Origin: a virus
Lineage: Duplodnaviria > Caudoviricetes
Reading direction: 5' to 3' (one strand)
Virus record (IMG/VR): IMGVR_UViG_3300011422_000012
Location: 1-36,182 of that record
DNA: 36,182 nt
A model generated the notes under the pieces. The model saw only the letters and a program-made list of their open reading frames with translations, was not told the DNA's origin and searched no databases. The translations under genes were made by a program, and so were the position numbers. Positions 846 through 35,563 of the stretch are shown here, in pieces (positions within the stretch are counted from its first letter, which is position 1; every line of letters starts with the position of its first letter).

Positions 846-986
846 GCCGCCTTATCGAAGTACGGGAGAAATGCCCGGGGTGCCGCGCCTAGCGGACGTG
901 GTGCCCCGGGTAGCGCCACGGAAGGCCACCGATCCAGGTCTCGCCCATCGAGAGCGCCGGAATACAGCGCCCGGCCCGGAAGGTGC

Positions 987-5290: not shown

Positions 5291-5619
5291 TGGAGTGTTA
5301 TGGGCCGATCGTCAACCCCGAGATACAAGCCCTGGTTAAGAAGATGAACTTGTGTATGTGCGGGTGGGGTACTGAGTATGAAGTGGTGAAGGAAGGATTG
5401 GAGTATGCACGCCGAGTGCACGAGAGCAAGCCCGGCGACCCGTTTATCGGCCTCGATGACATGGGCGAGTTTCGGCAGAAGGTTCTTGATTCGTGGGGGC
5501 TACTAGAGCACGGAACTTCAGTCGGCGGATCGTGGCTGACCGATGACGGTAAGGTATTGCTGGCATGGTTCGACGAGCACGGCACAAACGCGGACGAGTG
5601 GCCGCGAGAGGAGGGCTAA
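5290..5619 (+). CDS. conserved phage hypothetical protein (winged-helix-like C-terminus)
   Basis: LCMCG...LDSWGLLEHGTSVGGSWLTDDGK motif; AAGGAG SD before ATG 5290. Confidence 0.7.
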   Translation: MECYGPIVNPEIQALVKKMNLCMCGWGTEYEVVKEGLEYARRVHESKPGDPFIGLDDMGEFRQKVLDSWGLLEHGTSVGGSWLTDDGKVLLAWFDEHGTNADEWPREEG

Positions 5620-6209
5620 TGGGCACAGGGATGGTGAAGCCGGAGCGCTTGGAACTCTACTGCGGGCGCGCAGCGAAAGCCGCATCCGGCGACTTCGCCG
5701 AGCTCGGGTGCTACGCGGGGCGCACGACCTCGGTGCTCTGCAAGCTCGGGAAACAGCACGCCCGCATGGTGCACGCCATAGACTCCTTCCGCGGCATGGC
5801 AGAGCCCGGTCCGAACGACGGCGAGAACTACCCCGCGGGCAAGTTCGACGTCGGCGGGCTCGACGGCTTCGCGAAGCTCATGTCAGCGAAGGGGCTCGTG
5901 CTCGGCCAGGACTACAAGGCGCATGCGGGTTACGTGCCGGAGGTGCTCTACTGGGCAGACCCTGAGCTGACGACGCTCCGGCTCTCGTTCGCGTATCTCG
6001 ACCTCGATCACTACGAGCCGACGCTGCATGCGCTCCGGTGGCTGTGGGAGCACGTGAACCCGGGCGGGGTGATTCTCTGCGACGACTACGACGCGCCGGA
6101 CGGGCCGCACGTGCTCGCGGCGCTGGCGCTCAGGGAATGGCTCGGCGCCAAGGGCGAGGCGTTGCACTGGGACGAGTTGAGCGATGATCAGGTGGTGATC
6201 TTCCGATGA
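5619..6209 (+). CDS. TylF/MycF-like SAM-dependent O-methyltransferase
   Basis: GDFAELGCYAGRT (motif I), IDSFRGM, AYLDLDHYEPT, PGGVILCDDY are hallmark TylF-family motifs; GAGGAGGG SD. Confidence 0.85.
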   Translation: MGTGMVKPERLELYCGRAAKAASGDFAELGCYAGRTTSVLCKLGKQHARMVHAIDSFRGMAEPGPNDGENYPAGKFDVGGLDGFAKLMSAKGLVLGQDYKAHAGYVPEVLYWADPELTTLRLSFAYLDLDHYEPTLHALRWLWEHVNPGGVILCDDYDAPDGPHVLAALALREWLGAKGEALHWDELSDDQVVIFR

Positions 6210-6616
6210 GCGACCACGAACGGGACATGAAGATCGCCAGGGCGGCAGCCATGCACGGCTTCAAGGCGGCAGTGCAGCGTGGCGTGGTCATCTGGTCGGA
6301 AGTGAGCGATGGGTGGGAGATTAGGCCGGGTGCTGCGATGCGTGGTGTATGGGAGCCGACCGAAAGCGATCTGTTCGCTATCGTGAACCACGCCGGCGAC
6401 CGTCGTTGCCTCGCTGAGGGCTGCTCATTCCCACAGTACAACGGCGAGCCGCTTTGCAAGATGCACATGCGGCAAGGTCCGTGCGTCTGGTGCGGCAAGA
6501 CATGGAACCAGCACGAAGTGGAATCGGGCTTGGAGTATCTACAGCGCACCCCATGTCTCGGGATGCGTGGCGGTTTCGTCAACGCTGAGCGGCTGAAGCT
6601 GGTGCAGCGCCGATGA
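6206..6616 (+). CDS. hypothetical Cys-rich protein
   Basis: 136 aa, ATGA-coupled; C..EGC...LCKMH...CVWCG. Confidence 0.55.
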   Translation: MSDHERDMKIARAAAMHGFKAAVQRGVVIWSEVSDGWEIRPGAAMRGVWEPTESDLFAIVNHAGDRRCLAEGCSFPQYNGEPLCKMHMRQGPCVWCGKTWNQHEVESGLEYLQRTPCLGMRGGFVNAERLKLVQRR

Positions 6617-6771
6617 AAACGTGCATAGATTGTGGTTCTACGAACATTTTACATTACCGCGTAAGCGGGTACTGCTGGACTTGTAATAGCCACGATGTGC
6701 ATATGCACCATCGCTGCCGCGAGTGTGGTTTGCTGGAAGTGGTGCATGAGTCTAGCGAGGGCAAACAGTGA
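6613..6771 (+). CDS. small zinc-ribbon protein (52 aa)
   Basis: Own translation MKTCIDCGSTNILHYRVSGYCWTCNSHDVHMHHRCRECGLLE...; three CxxC; overlaps tile it; lower GC than neighbours. Confidence 0.6.
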   Translation: MKTCIDCGSTNILHYRVSGYCWTCNSHDVHMHHRCRECGLLEVVHESSEGKQ

Positions 6772-7475
6772 CCACGATCGCCTGCGTGCTGAACCCGTCG
6801 CCGGACTTCGATCGCGACTACGTCGAGCGCTTGGCGAGGGGCGTCCAGCGACATCTCTCGCTGCCTTACGAGTTCGTGTGCCTATCGCCGTTCGATCCGC
6901 AGCTCGCTGGCGTGCGCTGGGTGAAGATCAACCCGCGCTTGCCCGGTTGGTGGGCGAAGATCGAGCTCCTCCGCATGACGGGGCCGATGCTCTATCTCGA
7001 CCTCGATACGGTGATCGTTGGCAACCTCGATCCGCTCGTGGCGCACGTTGCGGATTCAACGCAGGCGTGGATGCTGAGAGACTTGGGCGGTGGGCGCAAG
7101 CTCGAGTGCGGCGTCATGGGGTGGAGCTTCCCCGAGAGCGAGCGCTTTCAAAAGCTGCACTGGCGGTTTTTCAACGAGTTGCGTGAGTTCTTGCCCGGCG
7201 TGGGCTCGCGCGAGCAGGCGGCGATGCGTGACCACGAGATGCGTTTATGGCAGAACGACGAGGACTGGTTGCGCGCTCAAATCGGGAAGTACGGCATTCC
7301 GGTGGGTGTGCTACAGGAACACGTGGCGGGGATCTACTCCTACAAGCTCGATGTTGAGAAGCTCGGTGGAGTGCCCGCCGATGCGGTGCTGATTTGCTTC
7401 CACGGCGTTCCCCGTCCGCGAGATCTCGCGGGGGAGAAGAAGGCGCCACAGTGGCTGAAGGAGAATTGGAGATGA
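6768..7475 (+). CDS. GT-A fold glycosyltransferase-like protein
   Basis: DYVERL..GV.RHL..PYEFVCL, GWWAKIELL, LYLDLDTVIVGNLD (DxD), ICFHGVPRP are typical of phage GT8-like proteins. Confidence 0.8.
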   Translation: MTTIACVLNPSPDFDRDYVERLARGVQRHLSLPYEFVCLSPFDPQLAGVRWVKINPRLPGWWAKIELLRMTGPMLYLDLDTVIVGNLDPLVAHVADSTQAWMLRDLGGGRKLECGVMGWSFPESERFQKLHWRFFNELREFLPGVGSREQAAMRDHEMRLWQNDEDWLRAQIGKYGIPVGVLQEHVAGIYSYKLDVEKLGGVPADAVLICFHGVPRPRDLAGEKKAPQWLKENWR

Positions 7476-9173: not shown

Positions 9174-9211
9174 ACTTCCCACCCTTCCTGCGACAAGTCG
9201 TTCTAGGCCAA

Positions 9212-9224
9212 GTGGCAAACCGGG
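9212..9224 (+). promoter_or_regulatory. leader motif copy 1 (variant GTGGCAAACCGGG) upstream of portal
   Basis: One extra A versus the other copies; lies in the loop of CTAGGCC/GGCCTAG hairpin (9203-9229); T is 23 nt before GTG 9236. Confidence 0.65.
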
Positions 9225-9235
9225 CCTAGGGGAGA

Positions 9236-11407
9236 GTGGCAGGCCAAGAACAGCTTCCGCTAGTTACCGAGACCCGCGAGGTAGCGCGCATCGCGTCGAC
9301 CCCGACGCTTGTCCGCCGCGCCGCACGCCTCCCCATCGGCCCTTCCTCGCAGGGCTTCCTCACGTTCTCGAACTTCCAGCCCGCCGAGGAGTCCTTCGCC
9401 CTCTACGAGCGCTTGGGCTGGATCTACGCCGCCGTGCGGCGCGTCGCCCTCGACATCTCCGGGCTCCCGCGCAAGGTCTTCAGCGGGAAGGGCAAGCAGG
9501 AGCACCCGATCGAGTCGGGGCCGGTGGTGGAGCTCCTCGACAACCCGAACCCGCTGATGACGTTCTCGGACATCGTCGAGATCCAGGTTAGCTACCTCGA
9601 AACTCTCGGCGCCGCCTACCTGCTCTTTGACTCTCGGGTGCCCGCTATCTGGCCGCTCCGCCCCGACCGCGTCCAGCCGATCATTTCACCGCGCGCAGAG
9701 CTCGAAGGCTGGGAGTACCGGGCGAGCGAGAAGGTGCTCAAGCTCCCGCCCGAGGCGGTGATCCCGTCGACGTATTTGAACCTGCGCGAGCCGATCGGCG
9801 GAAGGATGTCGCCGCTCCAACCCGTCTCAATCCCCGCGCAGGCCATGATTGCCTCGATGCTCTGGAACGTGCGGTTCTTCGAGCGCGGCGCGGCTCCATC
9901 GGGCTTCCTGACGACCGACCAGGCGCTCACGGACGTCGAGTTCGAGCGCGTGATTGCGGACGTCGAGGAGAACTGGCAGGGCTCGCAGAACGCGCACGGC
10001 GTTCCGATCCTCGACAAGGGGATCAAGTTCGAGCAGCTCGAAGCGAACCACAAGGACATGGGATTCGAGGGGCTGCTCCGGCTCTCGCGCGAGGAAGTGC
10101 TCGGGGCGATGGGTGTACCGCCCGCAATCGTCGGCGACTTTAAGCAGGCGAACTACGCGCAAGTCGAGATGCAGTACAAGAGCTATTGGCGGCTCAAGGT
10201 CATGCCGATTGCTCGGCGCCTCGAAGAGACGTACTCGCGATTCATGCTCCGGCAATTGGCACCCCAGGAGCGCATGCGGTTCGCGTTCGTGTTCTCGGGT
10301 GTCGAGGCATTGCAGGAGGACCGGAACGCAAAGGCCGCGCGCGAAGAGATCATGATTCGGACGGGGCTGCGGAACCGTGCCGAGCTCCGCGAGGCGGATG
10401 GGCTCAAGCCCTACGAGGGCGCAGACGAGTTCCTGCTCGCGCAAGGGCTCGTACCCGCGCGCCCGAAGGCTGAATTGGATGCTCGCGAAAAGGAGCGGGC
10501 GGAGGCCGCTCGGCCCCCCGGCGGTGGTGCTCCGCCCGCTCCCGGCAAGAAGGCGGGCGATGAGATCGAGACTCGCGCGAGCGACGAGCGCCGGGCGGCG
10601 ATCATTCGCCGTTTCGATGCGAAGCTCCGCCGCGCCGAAGTCCGCATGGCCGACTACTGGCAAGATGTGCTTTTCAGGCTCGAGCGCGAGGTCATTAGTC
10701 GGGTTCGGCAGCGGCCGCCAGTTTTAACGGGTCGCACCCCCGATGAGGAACCTCCGCTTGGGCCTATCCCCCTGCCGTTCCCGCTCGAGACGTATCTCCC
10801 CGAGTCCGCCGAGTACATCGCCGCGGTACAGACGGGACACGCCGCAATCTTCCGCCGGCTCATTGCCGAGTTCGGTGGCGAAGCGCTCGACGAGATCGGC
10901 TCCGAGTTCGCATTCGACGTCGGCACCCCGCGCGTGATTGAGACGATCATCCATGACGAGGAGCAGATCGGACGCTCGACTGCGCGGTTGCTCGATGACG
11001 TGAAGGAGGAGCTCGAGGCGGGGCTGAACCAGGGCGAGAGCATAGGCGACATGGCGAAGCGCATTCGCCAGGCGGTGGCGGATTCGGCGGAGACCCCGGC
11101 GCGGGGCGGCTCCTACGTGCGCTCGGAACGGATCGCGCGCACGGAGGCTCACTCGGCGGCGGGCTTCGCACGGATGGAGGGGTACCGACAAACCGGCGTC
11201 GAGGAGCATCAATGGTCCTCCTCGCACGATCAGTTCGTGCGCGATAGCCACAAGGACATGGACGAGAACCAAGAGACGGTGCGCGTCGGCGAGCCCTTCT
11301 CGAACGGCTGCACGTACCCGGGTGATGACGCGGGCGGGGCGGGCGAGGTGATCAACTGCCGGTGCTTGACGCTGCCCGTGGCGCAGGCGATGCGGGTGGC
11401 AGCGTGA
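9236..11407 (+). CDS. HK97-type portal protein fused to C-terminal MuF (phage head morphogenesis) domain
   Basis: Portal: WIYAAVRRVA, LLDNPNPLMT, WPLRPDRV, FFERGAAPSG, GVPPAIVG...NYA. MuF: ERIARTE...W....D..VRDSH...GEPFSNG..YPGD...EVINCRC. GGGGAG SD. Confidence 0.9.
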   Translation: MAGQEQLPLVTETREVARIASTPTLVRRAARLPIGPSSQGFLTFSNFQPAEESFALYERLGWIYAAVRRVALDISGLPRKVFSGKGKQEHPIESGPVVELLDNPNPLMTFSDIVEIQVSYLETLGAAYLLFDSRVPAIWPLRPDRVQPIISPRAELEGWEYRASEKVLKLPPEAVIPSTYLNLREPIGGRMSPLQPVSIPAQAMIASMLWNVRFFERGAAPSGFLTTDQALTDVEFERVIADVEENWQGSQNAHGVPILDKGIKFEQLEANHKDMGFEGLLRLSREEVLGAMGVPPAIVGDFKQANYAQVEMQYKSYWRLKVMPIARRLEETYSRFMLRQLAPQERMRFAFVFSGVEALQEDRNAKAAREEIMIRTGLRNRAELREADGLKPYEGADEFLLAQGLVPARPKAELDAREKERAEAARPPGGGAPPAPGKKAGDEIETRASDERRAAIIRRFDAKLRRAEVRMADYWQDVLFRLEREVISRVRQRPPVLTGRTPDEEPPLGPIPLPFPLETYLPESAEYIAAVQTGHAAIFRRLIAEFGGEALDEIGSEFAFDVGTPRVIETIIHDEEQIGRSTARLLDDVKEELEAGLNQGESIGDMAKRIRQAVADSAETPARGGSYVRSERIARTEAHSAAGFARMEGYRQTGVEEHQWSSSHDQFVRDSHKDMDENQETVRVGEPFSNGCTYPGDDAGGAGEVINCRCLTLPVAQAMRVAA

Positions 11408-12903: not shown

Positions 12904-13709
12904 CTAGCATTTACCGCGATTGGCAGGCCGGCATGCGCACCCCGCGCGGGCGCCTGGCCTATCTCGGCGAGAACGTGTTCCGCGCGTGCAACTCGGAGAT
13001 CACCGAGCGCGCACCCGAGGACAAGGATGACGCGCGCCTCGTCGTGTCGGGCTACTTCTCCACGTCCGATCCCGACATCGACAACTTCGTCATCAAGTCA
13101 AAGGGCTGGGAGGCGGGCCTGCCCGTCTACCTCGAACGCAATCCGATGTTCCTCTGGATGCACGATCCCATGTTCCCGATTGGGCGCGCCCTGTCGGCGG
13201 AGCCGCGGAAGCGTGGGCTGTTCGGTGCTACTGAGTTCGATCCCGACGACGAACTTGCGACGAAGCTCTACCGGAAGACCAAGGCCAAGTTTCTCGGTAC
13301 GTACTCGGTCGGATTCCGCGCGACCAAGGAGCCGCGCTTCGAGGAAGACACGATCTTCTTCGACGAGATGCAGCTTATGGAAGTCTCGCTCGTCTCGATC
13401 CCCGCGAACATCAACGCGGTGGTCACTGAGCGCGCGTTCGACGAGGAAGCCGTCGTGCAGCGCATGGTAACGGCAGCCGGGGACAAGTGGACGCTGGCCG
13501 CGGATAACGCGGTCGCCGAGGTCATGCGGCGCGCGAGCATCGAGATCCAGAGTGCCGTTGGCGACATCCGCAAGGGGCTCGTGCTGGATGCCGCGAAGGC
13601 GTTCGAGGAGCGGGTGGGGACGGTGGCGGACCTCGTCAACAAGGCGTGCACCAAGCGCGAGGTGCTCCAAGCCCTCGACAACTTCAAGCCCTTCGAGAAG
13701 CAGGGATAG
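12897..13709 (+). CDS. HK97-family prohead (maturation) protease
   Basis: VSGYFST...D, NPMFLWMHD...PIGR, YSVGFR, LMEVSLVSIPANINA; extra helical C-terminus. Confidence 0.92.
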   Translation: MVTSIYRDWQAGMRTPRGRLAYLGENVFRACNSEITERAPEDKDDARLVVSGYFSTSDPDIDNFVIKSKGWEAGLPVYLERNPMFLWMHDPMFPIGRALSAEPRKRGLFGATEFDPDDELATKLYRKTKAKFLGTYSVGFRATKEPRFEEDTIFFDEMQLMEVSLVSIPANINAVVTERAFDEEAVVQRMVTAAGDKWTLAADNAVAEVMRRASIEIQSAVGDIRKGLVLDAAKAFEERVGTVADLVNKACTKREVLQALDNFKPFEKQG

Positions 13710-14371: not shown

Positions 14372-14389
14372 AGTCAAGGGGACACAAGC

Positions 14390-14399
14390 TGGCAACCGG
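14390..14399 (+). promoter_or_regulatory. leader motif copy 2 (TGGCAACCGG) upstream of major capsid
   Basis: Exact 10-mer, 24 nt before GTG 14414. Confidence 0.75.
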
Positions 14400-14413
14400 A
14401 GACAGGCCAATGC

Positions 14414-15949
14414 GTGGAAACCCCGATCGAGGAGCGCCTGGTAAAGATCCAGCGCGACATTTCGGAACAATGGGACGCGGAGAAGAAGAAGATCGGCGCC
14501 GATCTCACTGAGCGATATACACGAGCGGAAGTCGACGAGCGACTCGGCCAGCTCAAATCCTCACTCGACGAGGATCTGAAGCGGAAGGTCGAGGAGCTAG
14601 TCAAGGCGTCGCACGAGGACCCGCGCTATCGCGTGGACCTGGTGCCGCGTCGTGAGTTCTCGTTCTACCGCTCGATGGCGAAGACGTCTACGACCCAGGA
14701 AGACTCGTGGGCGATCTATCGCGACTTCCTGACGTCGCACTCGGACCAGAAGGACGTCGAGCGCTTCCAGTACCTTTCCTCGCGCCTTGCGATTATCAGC
14801 CTGGGCGCGCGGCTATCCGGCAAGACCAACTACGTCGCCGCTGCGTCGAAGAACATCCAAGTCCGGAAGTGGTGGCACGAGTATCGCCAGCTCCAGATGG
14901 AGTTCTTCCCGGACGAGTTCTATCAGCGCGCCTTCGACACGCAAGCTATCAACGGGGCGCAGGGTGAATCGCTCTGGGTGCCCGACGTGCTCGGCGCCGA
15001 CCTCATGCGCTACTTGGAGATCCGCGGCGCGGTGCTTCCGAACATCCGCAGCTTCCAGCTTCCGGCGGCTCTCTGGCGCTGCCCGATCACCCTGGCTGCT
15101 GGCAAGGCGCACGGGTTCCGCGAAGTCGTGGCGGCTCCGACGTCTTACCCCGATCCTACCGGGGCGCAGATGTATGACGACGCGAGCGCGCCGTTCGGTC
15201 GTGTCACGTTCGACGTGGCCCGCTTCCGGTCGGTGATCATCTCGACTCGTGAGTTCATCGAAGAGTCAATCATCCCGATGATCGAGTGGACCATCGGCGA
15301 AGCAATGGACGGGATCCGGCGCGCCGCAGAAGACACGTTCTTCAACGGCGACAAGACCTCGCCCGGTATCGACTCCGAAACTTCCTACGCCGCGGCTTCG
15401 CCCACCGGCCGGGTCGACAACAAGATCCTGTGGAACGGCGTGCGCGCGAATGCTGCGGCTTCGGGTGTGACGCTCGTGCTGGGTGCTGGAAGTGGCGACT
15501 TCCCGGATTTCGTGCTCGCAAAGCAGCGGTGCGGCCGGTACGCAATCGAGCCGAGCGACTGGCTCTGGTGCTGCTCGCCGGCTTCGTACCTCGATCTGCT
15601 CGACGTGGGTGAGTTCGCGACTGTTGAGAAGATTGGCGAGCGGGCAACTGTCGTCACCGGGCAGGTTGGCGCGATCCTCGGCTCGCCGGTGGTCGTATCC
15701 GAGTACGTGCCCTCGAACGTCTCGGCGTCTGGCTACCAGACGACCTCGACCAACAACACCACGATGGTCATTGGATTCCACCGGCCGAGCTACTGGCTCG
15801 GGAACTGGCGCGGGATCACGACTGAGACGGATCGCCAGGCGATCGTCAACCAGGACTACGTCTACGCCTGGTACTCGGCGGACCTGCAAAAGATGCGGGC
15901 TGCTAGCGAGAAGACCGAGAACGTGATCATCAACATCGCAGTGGCCTAG
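14414..15949 (+). CDS. major capsid protein (HK97 fold) with N-terminal coiled-coil/delta region
   Basis: Position after protease; WVPDVLGADLM, ISTREFIEES, EDTFFNGD, GAILGSPVVVSEYVP; first in-frame start after stop at 14369. Confidence 0.9.
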   Translation: METPIEERLVKIQRDISEQWDAEKKKIGADLTERYTRAEVDERLGQLKSSLDEDLKRKVEELVKASHEDPRYRVDLVPRREFSFYRSMAKTSTTQEDSWAIYRDFLTSHSDQKDVERFQYLSSRLAIISLGARLSGKTNYVAAASKNIQVRKWWHEYRQLQMEFFPDEFYQRAFDTQAINGAQGESLWVPDVLGADLMRYLEIRGAVLPNIRSFQLPAALWRCPITLAAGKAHGFREVVAAPTSYPDPTGAQMYDDASAPFGRVTFDVARFRSVIISTREFIEESIIPMIEWTIGEAMDGIRRAAEDTFFNGDKTSPGIDSETSYAAASPTGRVDNKILWNGVRANAAASGVTLVLGAGSGDFPDFVLAKQRCGRYAIEPSDWLWCCSPASYLDLLDVGEFATVEKIGERATVVTGQVGAILGSPVVVSEYVPSNVSASGYQTTSTNNTTMVIGFHRPSYWLGNWRGITTETDRQAIVNQDYVYAWYSADLQKMRAASEKTENVIINIAVA

Positions 15950-15951
15950 TT

Positions 15952-16147
15952 AGCGGCGGAAAGTGAGGCGCATGAATGCATGGTCGTTTGGAGCAGGAGC
16001 GAAGGGGGGTTCTTTTCCGGTATGCCACACCCTCAGGTGTACCACCACACATCCAAGACAGCCGAATGACCTTTCATAAGGCTGGGAGGATAGGTGGCGC
16101 CTTTCGCTCTCTCTGCGGCCATGCTTCATGCGCCTCCTTCCATTGCT
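15952..16147 (+). ncRNA. putative ~195-nt structured non-coding RNA
   Basis: Nested pairing by eye: 15965-76/16125-36 (12 bp perfect), 15978-86/16116-24, 15996-16006/16100-10, inner 16059-63/16080-84; many G-U pairs favour the + strand; contains antisense copy of the leader motif at 16012-16028. Confidence 0.7.
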
Positions 16148-16169
16148 TGAAGAAAGGACAGGTTCAGCA

Positions 16170-16478
16170 ATGCCGCATCTGACAGTGAAGAAGAAGGTGC
16201 CCGGGCTCATGCTCAATCCCGGCGAGGTCATCGTCGTCGGGCCGGGAGCTGCCGCGCAACTTCTCAGGAAGTTCAAGCGCTACCTCGTGGAGTCGGTGCC
16301 GGGCGACGATGAGCTGGTCCCCGATTGGGGTCCGCAAATCACGAACGAGGAACGCGCGGCGATCAAGATGAAGACCTGGCCGCTCCCGCCGGAGGAGCGC
16401 CGCAAGTTCAAGAAGCCGGAGCCCGGTAAGGGGCCGACCGTCGAGAACCGTTCTGCGAGGCCGGATCACCACCGATAA
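16170..16478 (+). CDS. small hypothetical protein following capsid gene
   Basis: MPHLTVKKKVPGLMLNPGEVIVV...AAQLL; AAAGGA upstream. Confidence 0.65.
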   Translation: MPHLTVKKKVPGLMLNPGEVIVVGPGAAAQLLRKFKRYLVESVPGDDELVPDWGPQITNEERAAIKMKTWPLPPEERRKFKKPEPGKGPTVENRSARPDHHR

Positions 16479-16481
16479 ACC

Positions 16482-17144
16482 ATGGGCTCGATCATTACGC
16501 GCGACTAACTCAAGGCTAAGCTCGTGATCGACGCTTCCGACAACTCTCGGGACGCCGAACTCGATCTTGCCATCTCGCAGACCGAGGGCGAGTTCGAGGC
16601 GGGTATCGGTCAGAAGCTGCTCGAAGCCGACTACACCGAGCGCCGAGTGGGGAATGGGAAAACCTATCTCCAACTCCGGTTCTATCCGGTCATCGACCTG
16701 ATCTCGGTCGTGATCGAGGGCGAGGCGGCAGTCGACGTGGGCGACCCCGCCGTGATTCGCGTTGCGGATGGAACCGACGGCCTGCCCTGGCTCGCGCTGA
16801 CCGGTGGCCGCGTCTTCCCGTATCCGCGGTTCCTGCGCGTGCCTAACGTGACGATCGAGTACGGCGCGGGCTACGCGGACCAGCAGGAGGTCAAGGATGC
16901 GCTGCCCGACGTCTGGAGCGGGGTCCTCGAGCACGCGTACATCTTGCTGCTAGGGAACGACACGCGGAAGAAGGCCAAGGTGTCGGAGTCGTTCATGGGG
17001 CAGGGATATACGACGTTTATGGATCCGATCGACAAGGAACACGAGCGTGGATGGCGGCGCCTGATCGAGAAGCATCGCCGCCGGCCGATCACGCGCATGG
17101 CCGCGCGGGCGCTGACCGTAACCTCGCGCTATGGGGTCTGGTGA
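16482..17144 (+). CDS. head-tail connector/adaptor (gp6/gp15-like) with in-frame TAA at codon 9
   Basis: MGSIITRD*LKAKLVIDASDNSRDAELDLAI..., LRFYPVIDLISV, VTIEYGAGY, LPDV; continuous ORF only from GTG 16524. Confidence 0.75.
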
Positions 17145-19660: not shown

Positions 19661-19673
19661 AGGGGAAAACTGC

Positions 19674-19689
19674 GTGGCAACCGGGAAAG
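19674..19689 (+). promoter_or_regulatory. leader motif copy 3 (GTGGCAACCGGGAAAG) upstream of tail tube
   Basis: Exact 10-mer core; T19675 is 24 nt before GTG 19699; longest complementarity to 16012-16028. Confidence 0.75.
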
Positions 19690-19698
19690 TGACATGCA

Positions 19699-20862
19699 GT
19701 GGGTTCGCCTTCAGGACAGTATTCGCGGCTGTATTTCCGCAAGGAAGCCGTGCCCGGCACCTTCGCGGCGTTTTCGACAACGGCGGGGCTCAAGCTCTAT
19801 CAAGAGGAGTTTCAGCCGCGGCCGACCAAGACGCCGATCCGCTACCAGGAGAACAAGGGCGGCGTGATCTTCGACAACACGGACTTTACCCCGGGGCCGC
19901 AGGGCGTTACCGGGACGCTCCGCTTTGCGCTCCGCTACTCCGGCGTTCACGCCGTGATGATGGGGCACGCGCTCGGGCAGTTAGGAACGACCGGGCCGTC
20001 GGGCTCGCCGGCTGCGTACACGCATACAGCAGACGGCTCGGCGGGCACCCCGCCGGTACCTGGTAGATACAACTCGCTTTCCTTCCTGCATCAGCGGCCA
20101 ATCAATGATGCGGGAACGGTCTTCCGGCAAACGGAACTGCTCGGGGCGAAAATCGGGAGGATGCGGCTGACTCAGAGCGTCTCGCAGCCGTTCATCATTT
20201 GCGAGATGGACATCGTTGCGCAGGAAGCTAAGCATAACACGACTGCGGCAACGTCCCTTCCGCCTGATACGGGTACCGGATTTGCGCCGCACGAGGCGCT
20301 AGTCCAGACGTCGCACATCGTTGGCGCGAGCAATAATTGCTTTAGTTTCCAGTCGCGGTTAGGCACAACGACATCGACGGCAGTCTTCTTGCAACTCGAA
20401 GAATGGACGGTTGAGCTCAACAACTTCCCGGAGCAGCTCGGCGTGATCTCGAACATCAATCGGCAGTCGAACCCGGCGCGTGGTCAGGTGCGTGAGGTGT
20501 CGGGTTCGTTCGTGGTTGAGCAGGACGCGACGATTGACGAGATCGAGAAGGCATTCGGGAACACGGCGGCCGATCCGAACTCTGAAATCGCGATGACGTG
20601 GGCCTACGAGAATCCGGCGCAGATTCAGGAAGACTTTTCGATCCAGGTTTCTTCGGCGTACATCACGCAGCCCGAGCGCGGGACGTCTGGGACTGGACCG
20701 CAGCGGCGGCGTTACAACTTCACCGCGCACGGTGCTGGACCGAACGGAAACTGGCCGGGACCAACCCCGTTGAGGGTGACTGTCAAGAGCCTGATTGAAT
20801 TACCACCTTCCTCGGTGGATGGCCCCAAGTACGGAGATCACGTCACGGGCAACGGCGGCTAG
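19699..20862 (+). CDS. major tail (tube) protein
   Basis: SG..SRLYFRKE..PGT start, VTGTLRF, GAKIGRMRLT, WTVELNN, REVSGSF; precedes chaperone and tape measure. Confidence 0.8.
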   Translation: MGSPSGQYSRLYFRKEAVPGTFAAFSTTAGLKLYQEEFQPRPTKTPIRYQENKGGVIFDNTDFTPGPQGVTGTLRFALRYSGVHAVMMGHALGQLGTTGPSGSPAAYTHTADGSAGTPPVPGRYNSLSFLHQRPINDAGTVFRQTELLGAKIGRMRLTQSVSQPFIICEMDIVAQEAKHNTTAATSLPPDTGTGFAPHEALVQTSHIVGASNNCFSFQSRLGTTTSTAVFLQLEEWTVELNNFPEQLGVISNINRQSNPARGQVREVSGSFVVEQDATIDEIEKAFGNTAADPNSEIAMTWAYENPAQIQEDFSIQVSSAYITQPERGTSGTGPQRRRYNFTAHGAGPNGNWPGPTPLRVTVKSLIELPPSSVDGPKYGDHVTGNGG

Positions 20863-30005: not shown

Positions 30006-30017
30006 GTGGCAACCGGG
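30006..30017 (+). promoter_or_regulatory. leader motif copy 4 (GTGGCAACCGGG)
   Basis: Exact 10-mer core in loop of CAGCCT/GGGCTG stem (29999-30020); T30007 is 24 nt before in-frame TTG 30031. Confidence 0.7.
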
Positions 30018-30021
30018 CTGG

Positions 30022-30981
30022 ATGGAGGAATTGCCCAGCCTAACTGACGCAAGCCGCGACCCCATAACTTCACAACCCTCGCGGGTTACATCGAGCGGTG
30101 CGAGCGCCATAGCGCCGCAGTCCATTCTTTTTGGTGACTCCTTCCATGGCGCGGTGCTCGACGAAGATGGGCGCTGGACGCAGAACGCCGGCACAAGCGG
30201 GGATGCGTCTGTTGCCGATGGCCAGCTCTTGCTCGCCACGGGCGCGACTGGCGGATTTATTACGCTCACTTCCAAACCGAAGTTCGCACTTTATTCGGGC
30301 GCCGAACTCCTCTTTACCGCCATCGTGCGACTGGCGAGCGCCCCCATCTCGGGAAGCGTGCGGAATATCGGCCTTCAGGGCGTGGGCGTCAACGATCAGC
30401 TCTACTTCAACATCACAGACACCGCTTGGCAGGTAAAGATTACTACCGGCCCTGGCACCGTCATTCCATGGAACATCGGCAGCCCGCGGGCCGACGCGCT
30501 CGCGTGGATGAAGCTACAGATCCGAGCGACCAAGAGCCGCGCGCAGTTCATCATCAACGATAGCCCGATCTATCTCTACAACTCGATCGGCCAGCAGGAA
30601 CCGCTGCACCACGCCTCGCTCTGCACTGCGTTCCTGGAATCCTCGGATGGTACATCGGCTGGCGATAATTGGATGTATGTCTCCGAGGTCTCCGTCGTGC
30701 GCTCGTTCGAGTCCTGGCCGGCGACGGTCATGCGGAAGCGCATCACCGCGGACGGCATCATCGCGCGCGGCCCGTGCTGGTATCTCGGCATGAAGAAGGG
30801 GAGCGGTACCGGCACCTGCTTCATCCACGACGACGTCACCGCAGGCGCCAGCACCAAGATCGACGAATGGACAGGAGTTGATTTTGACAAGCAACCCACC
30901 GGGCCGATTGAGTGCCAAACGGGCATTTACGCCGACGTCAGCAGCACCGAGCCCGTCTACATCGACTACGCCCTCGCCTAA
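30022..30981 (+). CDS. beta-sandwich virion protein (start ATG 30022 or TTG 30031)
   Basis: Lectin-like beta-rich region plus small C-terminal domain (ITADGIIARGP...IHDD...GIYADV). Confidence 0.6.
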   Translation: MEELPSLTDASRDPITSQPSRVTSSGASAIAPQSILFGDSFHGAVLDEDGRWTQNAGTSGDASVADGQLLLATGATGGFITLTSKPKFALYSGAELLFTAIVRLASAPISGSVRNIGLQGVGVNDQLYFNITDTAWQVKITTGPGTVIPWNIGSPRADALAWMKLQIRATKSRAQFIINDSPIYLYNSIGQQEPLHHASLCTAFLESSDGTSAGDNWMYVSEVSVVRSFESWPATVMRKRITADGIIARGPCWYLGMKKGSGTGTCFIHDDVTAGASTKIDEWTGVDFDKQPTGPIECQTGIYADVSSTEPVYIDYALA

Positions 30982-31048: not shown

Positions 31049-31261
31049 ATGGCTAAGGTCTGTTCTCTCTGCAAGAGCTGGCAAGCGCCTGGTCCTACGG
31101 ATACCACGATGGACTGCCCGCACGATGGGGCAGATGTGGCCACCGAAACCCGGTGCGGGGTGTGTAGCACGACACCGCGTGCGTGGATTGCGCTGTCTGC
31201 TGAGGACATCGCGACCAACGAGTCACAACACAATACCGCCCCCGGGCACGTTTTCGAGTAG
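31049..31261 (+). CDS. small Cys-rich protein (70 aa)
   Basis: MAKVCSLC...CPHD...CGVC; GGAG upstream. Confidence 0.55.
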   Translation: MAKVCSLCKSWQAPGPTDTTMDCPHDGADVATETRCGVCSTTPRAWIALSAEDIATNESQHNTAPGHVFE

Positions 31262-35076: not shown

Positions 35077-35101
35077 GGGGGCGCCGCGGCCCCTCTTTTT
35101 T
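35077..35101 (+). terminator. putative intrinsic terminator
   Basis: GGGGGC-gccgcg-GCCCCT stem followed by CTTTTTT. Confidence 0.55.
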
Positions 35102-35118
35102 CGCGGGATAGACACTTC

Positions 35119-35134
35119 GTGGCAACCGGAGAAA
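35119..35134 (+). promoter_or_regulatory. leader motif copy 5 (GTGGCAACCGGAGAAA)
   Basis: Exact 10-mer core in loop of CTTCG/CGGAG stem; T35120 is 24 nt before GTG 35144. Confidence 0.75.
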
Positions 35135-35143
35135 TGACATGAA

Positions 35144-35563
35144 GTGGCCTCGTTCAACAAGTTTGAATCGTTCGTCGAGAAGCTGGCGGAAGGTGAGCAC
35201 AACCTGGGCACCAATACGCTCAAAATCTACCTGACCGACGCGACGCCGAGCGCATCGCTGGATCTGCTGAAGGCGGACCTAGCCGAGATCACGCCGCAGA
35301 ACGGCTACCCGGCGGGCGGCACGGCGGTCACGGTGACGAGTTCGTCTCAGACGGCGGGCACCTACTCGCTGGCGCAGTCGGCGGACGTGGTGTTCACCGC
35401 CTCGGGCGGTAGCTTCGGCCCGTTCCGTTACGCGGTGCTCTACAACGATACCCACGCTTCCGACGCGCTGATCGGGTGGTGGGACTACGGCTCGAGCGTC
35501 TCGTGCAACACCGGCGAGACCTTTACCGTGGATCTGGCGGCGACGATTATCACGATAGTCTAG
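35144..35563 (+). CDS. conserved phage virion (tail-fibre-associated) protein
   Basis: MASFNKF..FVE.LAE..HNLG..TLKIYLT...NGYPAGG...GPFRYAVLYNDT...LIGWWDYG...GETFTVD family pattern. Confidence 0.75.
   Translation: MASFNKFESFVEKLAEGEHNLGTNTLKIYLTDATPSASLDLLKADLAEITPQNGYPAGGTAVTVTSSSQTAGTYSLAQSADVVFTASGGSFGPFRYAVLYNDTHASDALIGWWDYGSSVSCNTGETFTVDLAATIITIV

Follow-up and report, generated by a model that had tools for sequence, protein, structure and literature searches.

This locus raises the question of why a strongly folded intergenic element, lying directly behind a phage capsid gene, carries the complement of a short motif that stands ahead of several virion genes of the same phage. The stretch of DNA analyzed (hereafter the window) is a 36.2-kb phage record whose plus strand carries terminase, portal, protease, HK97-type capsid, connector, tail and lysis genes; with an overlapping record, G001, it forms a span of 46.4 kb, on which the site rankings given below were run. 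The sequencing runs that contain the phage are freshwater sediment and groundwater metagenomes. No prophage form was found in genome scans, cultured phages yielded either capsids of less than 60% identity (23-27% among the best 20 listed) or no match, and Acidobacteriota appeared as a sub-threshold lead for the host. Methyltransferase, glycosyltransferase, radical SAM and epimerase genes located within the late region or close to it (window 5565-7475; L005:538-1623; L223:15357-16932) possibly serve virion or DNA glycosylation. Small Cys-rich ORFs at window 31050-31261 (70 aa) and 6613-6771 have no PHROG or Pfam match; the former is conserved in record G005, and no copy was found behind the tail gene of either G006 or G007. 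The features around the element are the following.

14414-15949, plus strand: HK97-type major capsid protein gene, preceding the rod and also one of its targets
15952-16147, plus strand: RNA rod predicted from folding, in the gap that separates the capsid stop from the Shine-Dalgarno (SD) sequence of the next gene
16004-16034, plus strand: guide hairpin, in which the G-run 16004-16009 closes on CCCTC at 16030-16034, from sequence reading and constrained folds
16010-16029, plus strand: guide loop, with 16012-16028 as the segment complementary to the leader motif (the tag); the most conserved inner part among clade relatives
16033-16114, plus strand: strain-variable insert holding GGGAGGA (16084-16090), from comparison of relatives
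16170-16478, plus strand: small gene behind the rod, starting at an ATG with an ordinary SD

The small gene at 16170-16478 received no family assignment. In the head-tail adaptor gene (true ATG at 16482) an in-frame TAA occupies codon 9 (16506-16508); because three near-identical records read GAA at this position, the TAA is probably an assembly error or a private variant.

The element had been described in a first-pass annotation, made from the letters of the window, as a structured RNA of no recognized family, and both points hold. The rod folds at -107.7 kcal/mol (z = -7.92; 0 of 200 shuffles equal it), and a search of Rfam 15 at the gathering threshold gave no match in the window or in six related loci, the best sub-threshold hit in the rod search being a weak snoRNA match of 16.9 bits against a cut-off of 100. 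The minus strand folds at -90.1 kcal/mol with 3 G-U pairs, against 10 on the plus strand; among nine rods compared, the plus strand folds better in eight and G-U pairs are commoner on it in seven. That the copy of the motif in the rod might be merely a reversed promoter was looked into as well: a scan covering the sigma-70 type found no promoter around the rod, including on the minus strand at the tag copy, and the bases downstream of that copy are not conserved among four types of clade A, the close relatives described below. No intrinsic terminator (GC stem plus U-tract) was found within 15700-16500. In RNA run X13, a contig from 15770 to 16350 spans the element and continues into both flanking genes; contigs from this run occur elsewhere in the phage too and could include DNA, and the assembled contigs of RNA runs carry no strand, ends or level. 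The element is not covered in RNA run X24.

The lack of promoter-like or terminator-like sites around the rod and the contig running through it would suit a long-range contact in cis, from capsid leader to post-capsid rod within one late transcript and with no free RNA, as would two lineages introduced below (L245 and L246) that show just the adjacent capsid leader as target. The targets in the window, however, are spread from 6.8 kb before the rod to 19 kb beyond it, a U-tailed hairpin near 35090 preceding one of them, and across lineages the rod occupies three different positions (after the capsid, adaptor or neck gene); we consider a contact of this kind improbable.

Inside the rod, both the antisense segment 16012-16028 and GGGAGGA are present as annotated. 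L003, L004 and runs X10 and X13 have 42 other letters in place of the insert that holds GGGAGGA, and L005, L051 and L052 lack the insert; because GGGAGGA is not conserved, the early suggestion that it supplies an SD in trans finds no support. In the predicted minimum-energy fold of the window, most of the guide is paired with this insert, and the cost of opening the guide is 5.5 kcal/mol in the window, 3.1 in L003/L004 and 1.0-1.3 in L005, L007, L051 and L052.

The tag, (G/C)TGGCA(A)ACCGG, has five plus-strand copies in the window (9212, 14389, 19674, 30006 and 35119) and one minus-strand copy, which is the guide segment itself; block shuffles gave a mean of 0.125 copies and a maximum of 1 in 40 shuffles. 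Looser patterns are by themselves not above chance (8 against 5.7 and 13 against 15.3). The five tags lie 24-25 nt 5' of GTG or TTG starts, in the following leaders.

9202-9238, plus strand: portal leader, tag 9212-9223 in the loop of a hairpin at 9202-9230, GTG start at 9236
14389-14416, plus strand: capsid leader, tag 14389-14399, out-of-frame ATG 14410-14412, GTG start at 14414, from homologue N-termini
19669-19701, plus strand: tail-tube leader, tag 19674-19684, GTG start at 19699
30006-30033, plus strand: leader of a tail-region gene, tag 30006-30016, probable TTG start at 30031
35113-35146, plus strand: leader of a phrog_644 gene, tag 35119-35129, GTG start at 35144

The capsid and tube GTG starts are confirmed by homologue N-termini, which also support the other tagged starts; the tail-region gene has an in-frame ATG at 30022 as an alternative, and the tube label derives from PF18906 on homologues and from gene position. 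A predicted hairpin at 19669-19700 covers an out-of-frame ATG (19694) and part of the tube GTG, and a predicted 9-bp hairpin at 35113-35146 covers both the out-of-frame ATG at 35139 and the GTG of the phrog_644 gene. Complementarity of the guide segment to all five leaders, as first claimed, was put to the genome-wide ranking that had been advised: when only the loop was used as query, the five leaders took ranks 1, 2, 3, 5 and 6 among the plus-strand sites of the 46 kb, and are thus five of the loop's six best partners. The tail-tube duplex of 16 bp with a bulged A was reproduced, at -24.9 kcal/mol. The extra A of the portal tag does face the extra A of the guide, as had been noticed, and forms an A.A mismatch rather than a pair. 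The window guide is the weakest of the guides, being bulged against four of five tags and giving a run of at least 9 in just two of seven leaders, and in a cofold with the portal leader the tag is not used.

Several other readings of the leaders were tried and rejected. Frameshifting or editing from the upstream ATG is contradicted by offsets that vary (-2, -4, -5, -7, -13, -14) and by homologue N-termini that begin at the GTG or TTG; use of the tag's own GTG as a start gives inconsistent frames, some of which run into stops; and pairing of a leader CATG with the 5' arm of the rod fails in that the arm is locked in a stem and absent in L051/L052, the CATG pairing with the leader's own stem. 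A 26-nt guide query that included the G-rich stem gave matches swamped by GC-rich sites.

The close relatives that form clade A have capsid identities to the window of 94% (L003/L004), 77% (L005-L007), 64% (L008/L051) and 56% (L052), and rods of 77 to 196 nt. Their tag is GGCAACCGG; the loop core CCGGU(A)UGCC is kept, and the closing G-rich/C-rich stems differ in sequence (GCGGG/CCCGC, CGAGG/CCTCG and GAGGG/CCCTC among relatives). The tags stay at the same register and the set of tagged genes shifts: the protease gene is tagged in L051 and L052 and untagged in the window, and the capsid gene of L052 is untagged and has an SD of its own. A tag is also carried by the radical SAM gene of L005. 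Clade-A guides show no preference for their own leaders, so that co-variation is unreadable inside this clade. Clade-A leaders are predicted to fold with the tag at the loop, on stems that differ and are each self-matching, as exemplified by CACUUCGUG/CAUGAAGUG at 35113-35146; in 14 such leaders, in which orthologues are not independent, the cognate 5' and 3' halves pair better than in any of 200,000 permutations, two of the 14 being without a cognate stem. When viral contigs were scanned with the clade-A guide or tag pattern, the matches were either to relatives already known or unrelated; other lineages have guides of different sequence, which clade-A patterns therefore cannot find. An unrelated repeat of ~45-50 nt ending in GTGGCAACCGGATAAGCATG lies between genes in ~20 viral loci (L058:4934, L060:10001, L067, L074, L078, L107, L112, L113, L122, L133, L135, L156, L172, L174, L175 and others), sometimes twice per contig and in either orientation; it looks like a gene-cassette boundary, and probably has the clade-A tag core by chance.

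The case for pairing comes from more distant relatives. At about one-third capsid identity, unrelated tags precede the same genes, and each is mirrored in the loop of that phage's own intergenic rod. In G006/L038 (37% capsid identity) the tag GAGGTRCGGC stands before the protease, tube, tail and phrog_644 genes, and the best plus-strand complement of the tag in the 22.1 kb of this record is AACCGCCGUACCUC, a 14-nt loop in a rod that follows the neck gene. In G007/L037 (37%) the tag GGRCAGGGCAR stands before the tube, tape-measure, tail and phrog_644 genes and one more gene, with the loop AGAACUGCCCUGUCCC in a rod after the adaptor gene. Three further lineages at 32-34%, G015/L248 (CGGAAGGCA with UGCCUUCCG), L246 (TGGCTTGGCA with UGCCAAGCCA) and L245 (GCCAGACTGGG with CCCAGUCUGGC), each carry, behind the capsid gene, a rod that complements the lineage's own capsid leader; the G015 rod complements the portal leader also. 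Across six lineages, the cognate assignment of leaders to intergenic regions is the best of 720 permutations by both scores (longest run, 70 against a mean of 47; leaders with at least 9 pairs, 16 against 3.0), the lineages and intergenic regions having been picked after the matches were seen, L054 having been left out, and L245 and L246 contributing one target each. This comparison took seven gene types by orthology, leader windows from -32 to -11 and whole intergenic regions. It is the co-variation test that the first-pass annotation had set itself, and the core idea of that annotation, namely that a phage RNA targets the leaders of virion genes through base pairing, is supported by it.

A blind scan ranked the loop first in four of six long records (G005, with 3 genes; L005, 4; G006, 4; G007, 5) and missed it in the window and in G002, where the guide is bulged; in the window a different site, with 3 genes, came out on top. 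Of 95 unrelated strand-loci, none had as many as three genes, 28 further loci gave at most 2 genes (gene calls being missing or thin in L245, L047, L255 and L265), and at the level of 8-mers just poly-U runs reached 3. More distant capsid or adaptor relatives gave no tag/loop signal. In L054, tags of the form GGCGRCCGGGT at 2977, 4557 and ~8447 lie 15-16 nt (counted from CCGG) before the protease, capsid and tube starts, and no complement to these three tags was found in its 8.9-kb fragment; L054 is a seventh lineage whose guide lies outside that fragment.

Since loop and tag change together in six lineages, the RNA likely pairs with virion messages. Together with the excess of G-U pairs on the plus strand and tag variants that place A or G opposite a guide U, this co-variation makes it very probable, on comparative grounds, that loop and tag meet as RNA. 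The spacing of clade-A tags and NGTG resembles that of ECF-sigma promoters, a point for reading the tags instead as DNA or RNA sites for a protein (a late promoter element or a Com-like activator) and the loop as a reversed copy or decoy. The architecture also recalls Com/mom of phage Mu, as outlined in the available part of PMC6483171. An ECF-type -10 box would, however, overlap a start codon fixed by homologues; each of six unrelated tags is matched by a complement of its own in a loop; in eight of nine rods it is the plus strand that folds better; and the Com zinc-ribbon (PF10122) was found in 0 of 6 records (G000-G005, all incomplete) at E <= 1. A protein site is thus highly improbable.

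Some further rods and repeats were seen in these lineages. The post-capsid rod of G006 (L038:7425-7515) has a small loop that could pair over 8 bp (-12.4 kcal/mol) with its own capsid leader, 13 nt before the capsid GTG and just 5' of an out-of-frame ATG; it is a possible second guide, with a match length not above chance. L245 (3655-3725) and L246 (10618-10690) share a near-identical rod between the adaptor and neck genes, while their capsids and post-capsid guides differ, and this rod has no clear target in the fragments. Partial second copies of the tag occur 15-45 nt upstream of the main tag (L245 ~1030, L246 ~7785, L038 ~11060, L037 ~8730).

The consequence of pairing is suggested by the anatomy of the leaders. 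For all 28 tagged leaders that have a real guide, the duplex is predicted to begin at -22 to -26 and to end between -7 and -16; it never covers the true start and does cover the SD of a decoy, an out-of-frame ATG that usually lies 2-14 nt upstream with a better SD overlapping the tag. Such an ATG occurs within 16 nt in 19/28 tagged leaders, against 3/22 untagged structural genes and 21/150 background genes; when one leader is counted per lineage and gene, it is present in 14/23 (p = 4e-6). Its SD is stronger than that of the true start in 16 of 19 cases. The tagged genes themselves are handicapped by GTG or TTG starts and weak SDs. Non-ATG starts number 19/28 among tagged and 4/22 among untagged genes, and are GTG, TTG or, probably, ATC in the G005 portal, where (L223 ~855-880, minus strand) an apparent ATC start lies 13 nt after the tag and the tag's own GTG is the sole other nearby in-frame start. 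Median SD energy is -3.3 kcal/mol for tagged and -5.9 for untagged genes (p = 0.01; 31 tagged leaders, including 3 of L054), scored with an anti-SD motif that is not taken from a host and may differ from that of the phage's host; untagged capsid orthologues (L052, G006, G007) have SDs of -6.4 to -7.3 kcal/mol. Predicted burial of the start is 12.7 kcal/mol for tagged genes against 8.0 for untagged structural genes (p = 7e-4), and is not greater than the 11.8 of all other called genes (p = 0.19). Predicted opening on guide binding has a median of 2.3 against 1.3-1.4 (p about 0.02).

Because the tagged starts are handicapped, and because the duplex masks the decoy's SD and spares the true start, we infer activation. 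The most likely function of the rod RNA is to activate virion-gene translation, and the specific reading that it is a trans-acting antisense RNA which masks the decoy start and loosens the leader hairpin has, in our estimate, a probability of roughly 0.6. The leader is predicted to form a hairpin with the tag in or atop its loop and the start region in its stem. Without the RNA, this hairpin would bar ribosomes, or their loading at the decoy ATG would occlude the true start. The rod would be made with the late transcript, perhaps excised by a double-strand-specific RNase, and would bind the tag loop to loop, masking the decoy's SD and loosening the stem; since the duplex ends short of the true start, a ribosome could load there. 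Virion proteins would then be made once late transcription has passed the capsid gene, as a threshold switch private to the lineage. Among the modes offered in the first pass, the hairpin opener fits best, with the addition of decoy masking, which had gone unseen. Against activation stand the weakness of the window guide, the strong SD of the L246 capsid gene, the absence of a decoy from 9/28 tagged leaders and the modest predicted opening. A tag-like sequence also lies over the in-frame ribosome-binding site (RBS) of a tail-chaperone gene in G005 (L051:16416-16426) and G006 (L038 ~13325-13340), where pairing would repress.

The last observation is among those that favor the repressor mode of the first pass, in which the same pairing would block a standby or enhancer site or recruit a nuclease, giving negative feedback as late RNA accumulates. 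In 13/31 leaders the duplex extends on its 3' side as far as -7 to -11; in L052 and in the protease gene of G006 the decoy ORF ends on the true start, and could feed it by coupling; and the phage antisense RNAs described in the accessible portion of PMC12197685 (c4, sar, OOP and aQ) repress. Repression is nevertheless rather unlikely: the duplex is never over the true start, untagged orthologues tend to have a proper SD, and most tagged genes are without a usable SD and have a better out-of-frame start, which ill fits high default expression of a capsid.

The tight 5' register exceeds the needs of de-repression alone, and motivates a more tentative reading, in which the guide-tag duplex would replace the SD interaction and position the ribosome on a weak codon ~24 nt further downstream, which may be GUG, UUG or even AUC. 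The weak codon would be chosen over the adjacent decoy AUG, and virion genes would stay locked until the guide RNA is present; if true, the system would amount to RNA-guided initiation of translation in nature, its key exchangeable, and would be categorically new. The constant register of 22-26 nt, the missing SD and the upstream decoys would equally be explained if the RNA guided a cut or processing near the true start, removing the decoy and leaving a leaderless or short-leader message. No nuclease common to the lineages was found, however, in the available fragments, which share virion-module genes alone, and guided processing appears quite improbable.

Judged from sequence, the rod and its tags are a real and undescribed base-pairing phage RNA system with exchangeable specificity. 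No paper describing it was found in the literature, as judged from titles and the beginnings of abstracts, with subscription papers mostly outside this scope. A 2025 review of phage sRNAs (PMC12197685) names, in the part accessible, no RNA that addresses virion-gene leaders, and a catalogue of 10,006 viral candidate RNAs (PMC10690425) gave no sequence match in three of its nine supplementary files, the rest of which may hold the rod RNA.

If activation is true, a phage late-gene switch would be thrown by an RNA key and not by a protein, and one loop would coordinate the genes for head, portal and tail; its key sequence would have been exchanged at least 6 times under an unchanged geometry. Such a switch would bear on the timing and balance of virion protein synthesis in phages and on the bacterial choice between neighboring start codons. 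The six natural tag/guide pairs form a ready orthogonal set that could serve as riboregulators.

The sRNAs DsrA and RprA of the rpoS message free a start region when they pair with the 5' strand of the leader structure that inhibits translation. These RNAs are host-encoded, Hfq-dependent and directed to idiosyncratic sites, in contrast to the repeated, exchangeable tag at fixed register in a phage late module seen here. The c4 RNA of phages P1 and P7, as described in the available part of PMC12197685, is, like the predicted rod, a structured phage RNA that displays a complement in loops and pairs near the RBS of its message, with a specificity that differs between related phages. As in c4, predicted folds display the complement to target leaders in a loop, and guide and target co-vary (six lineages); pairing does not lie over the RBS of the regulated frame, the duplex running from about -25 to -7/-16. 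According to the same source, c4 represses an antirepressor message for immunity, whereas here one loop addresses up to five virion-gene leaders, by a dedicated tag, with a duplex short of the true start and probably to activating effect. Mu Com/mom, in the portion of PMC6483171 available, shares late expression and a GUG start sequestered by an inhibitory hairpin directly downstream of an activator site, an arrangement predicted here for the tube and phrog_644 genes, the L005 capsid and the L052 protease; Com is a zinc-finger protein acting on one gene, whereas the partner here is apparently an RNA loop that co-varies with the tag. In Sinorhizobium meliloti a close upstream RBS has been shown experimentally to lower translation from the main start (PMC13285730, available in part), and the corresponding layout, an SD and ATG within one ribosome footprint, is found in 19/28 tagged leaders, with the decoy SD stronger in 16 of the 19. 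The available text on that occlusion mentions no relief by a trans-acting RNA, whereas here the decoy's SD lies in the target of the guide. In the LIRA design, from what is given in the accessible part of PMC8940621, a trigger RNA binds the loop and stem top of a hairpin that hides RBS and start, and frees both; LIRA is synthetic; it uses 21-nt loops together with a strong SD-AUG and lacks a decoy start, in contrast to the natural, predicted duplexes of 9-16 bp here. Activation therefore has partial precedents, as far as these sources are available, in upstream-RBS occlusion (PMC13285730), the release of a GUG start in Com/mom (PMC6483171) and loop-initiated opening (PMC8940621).
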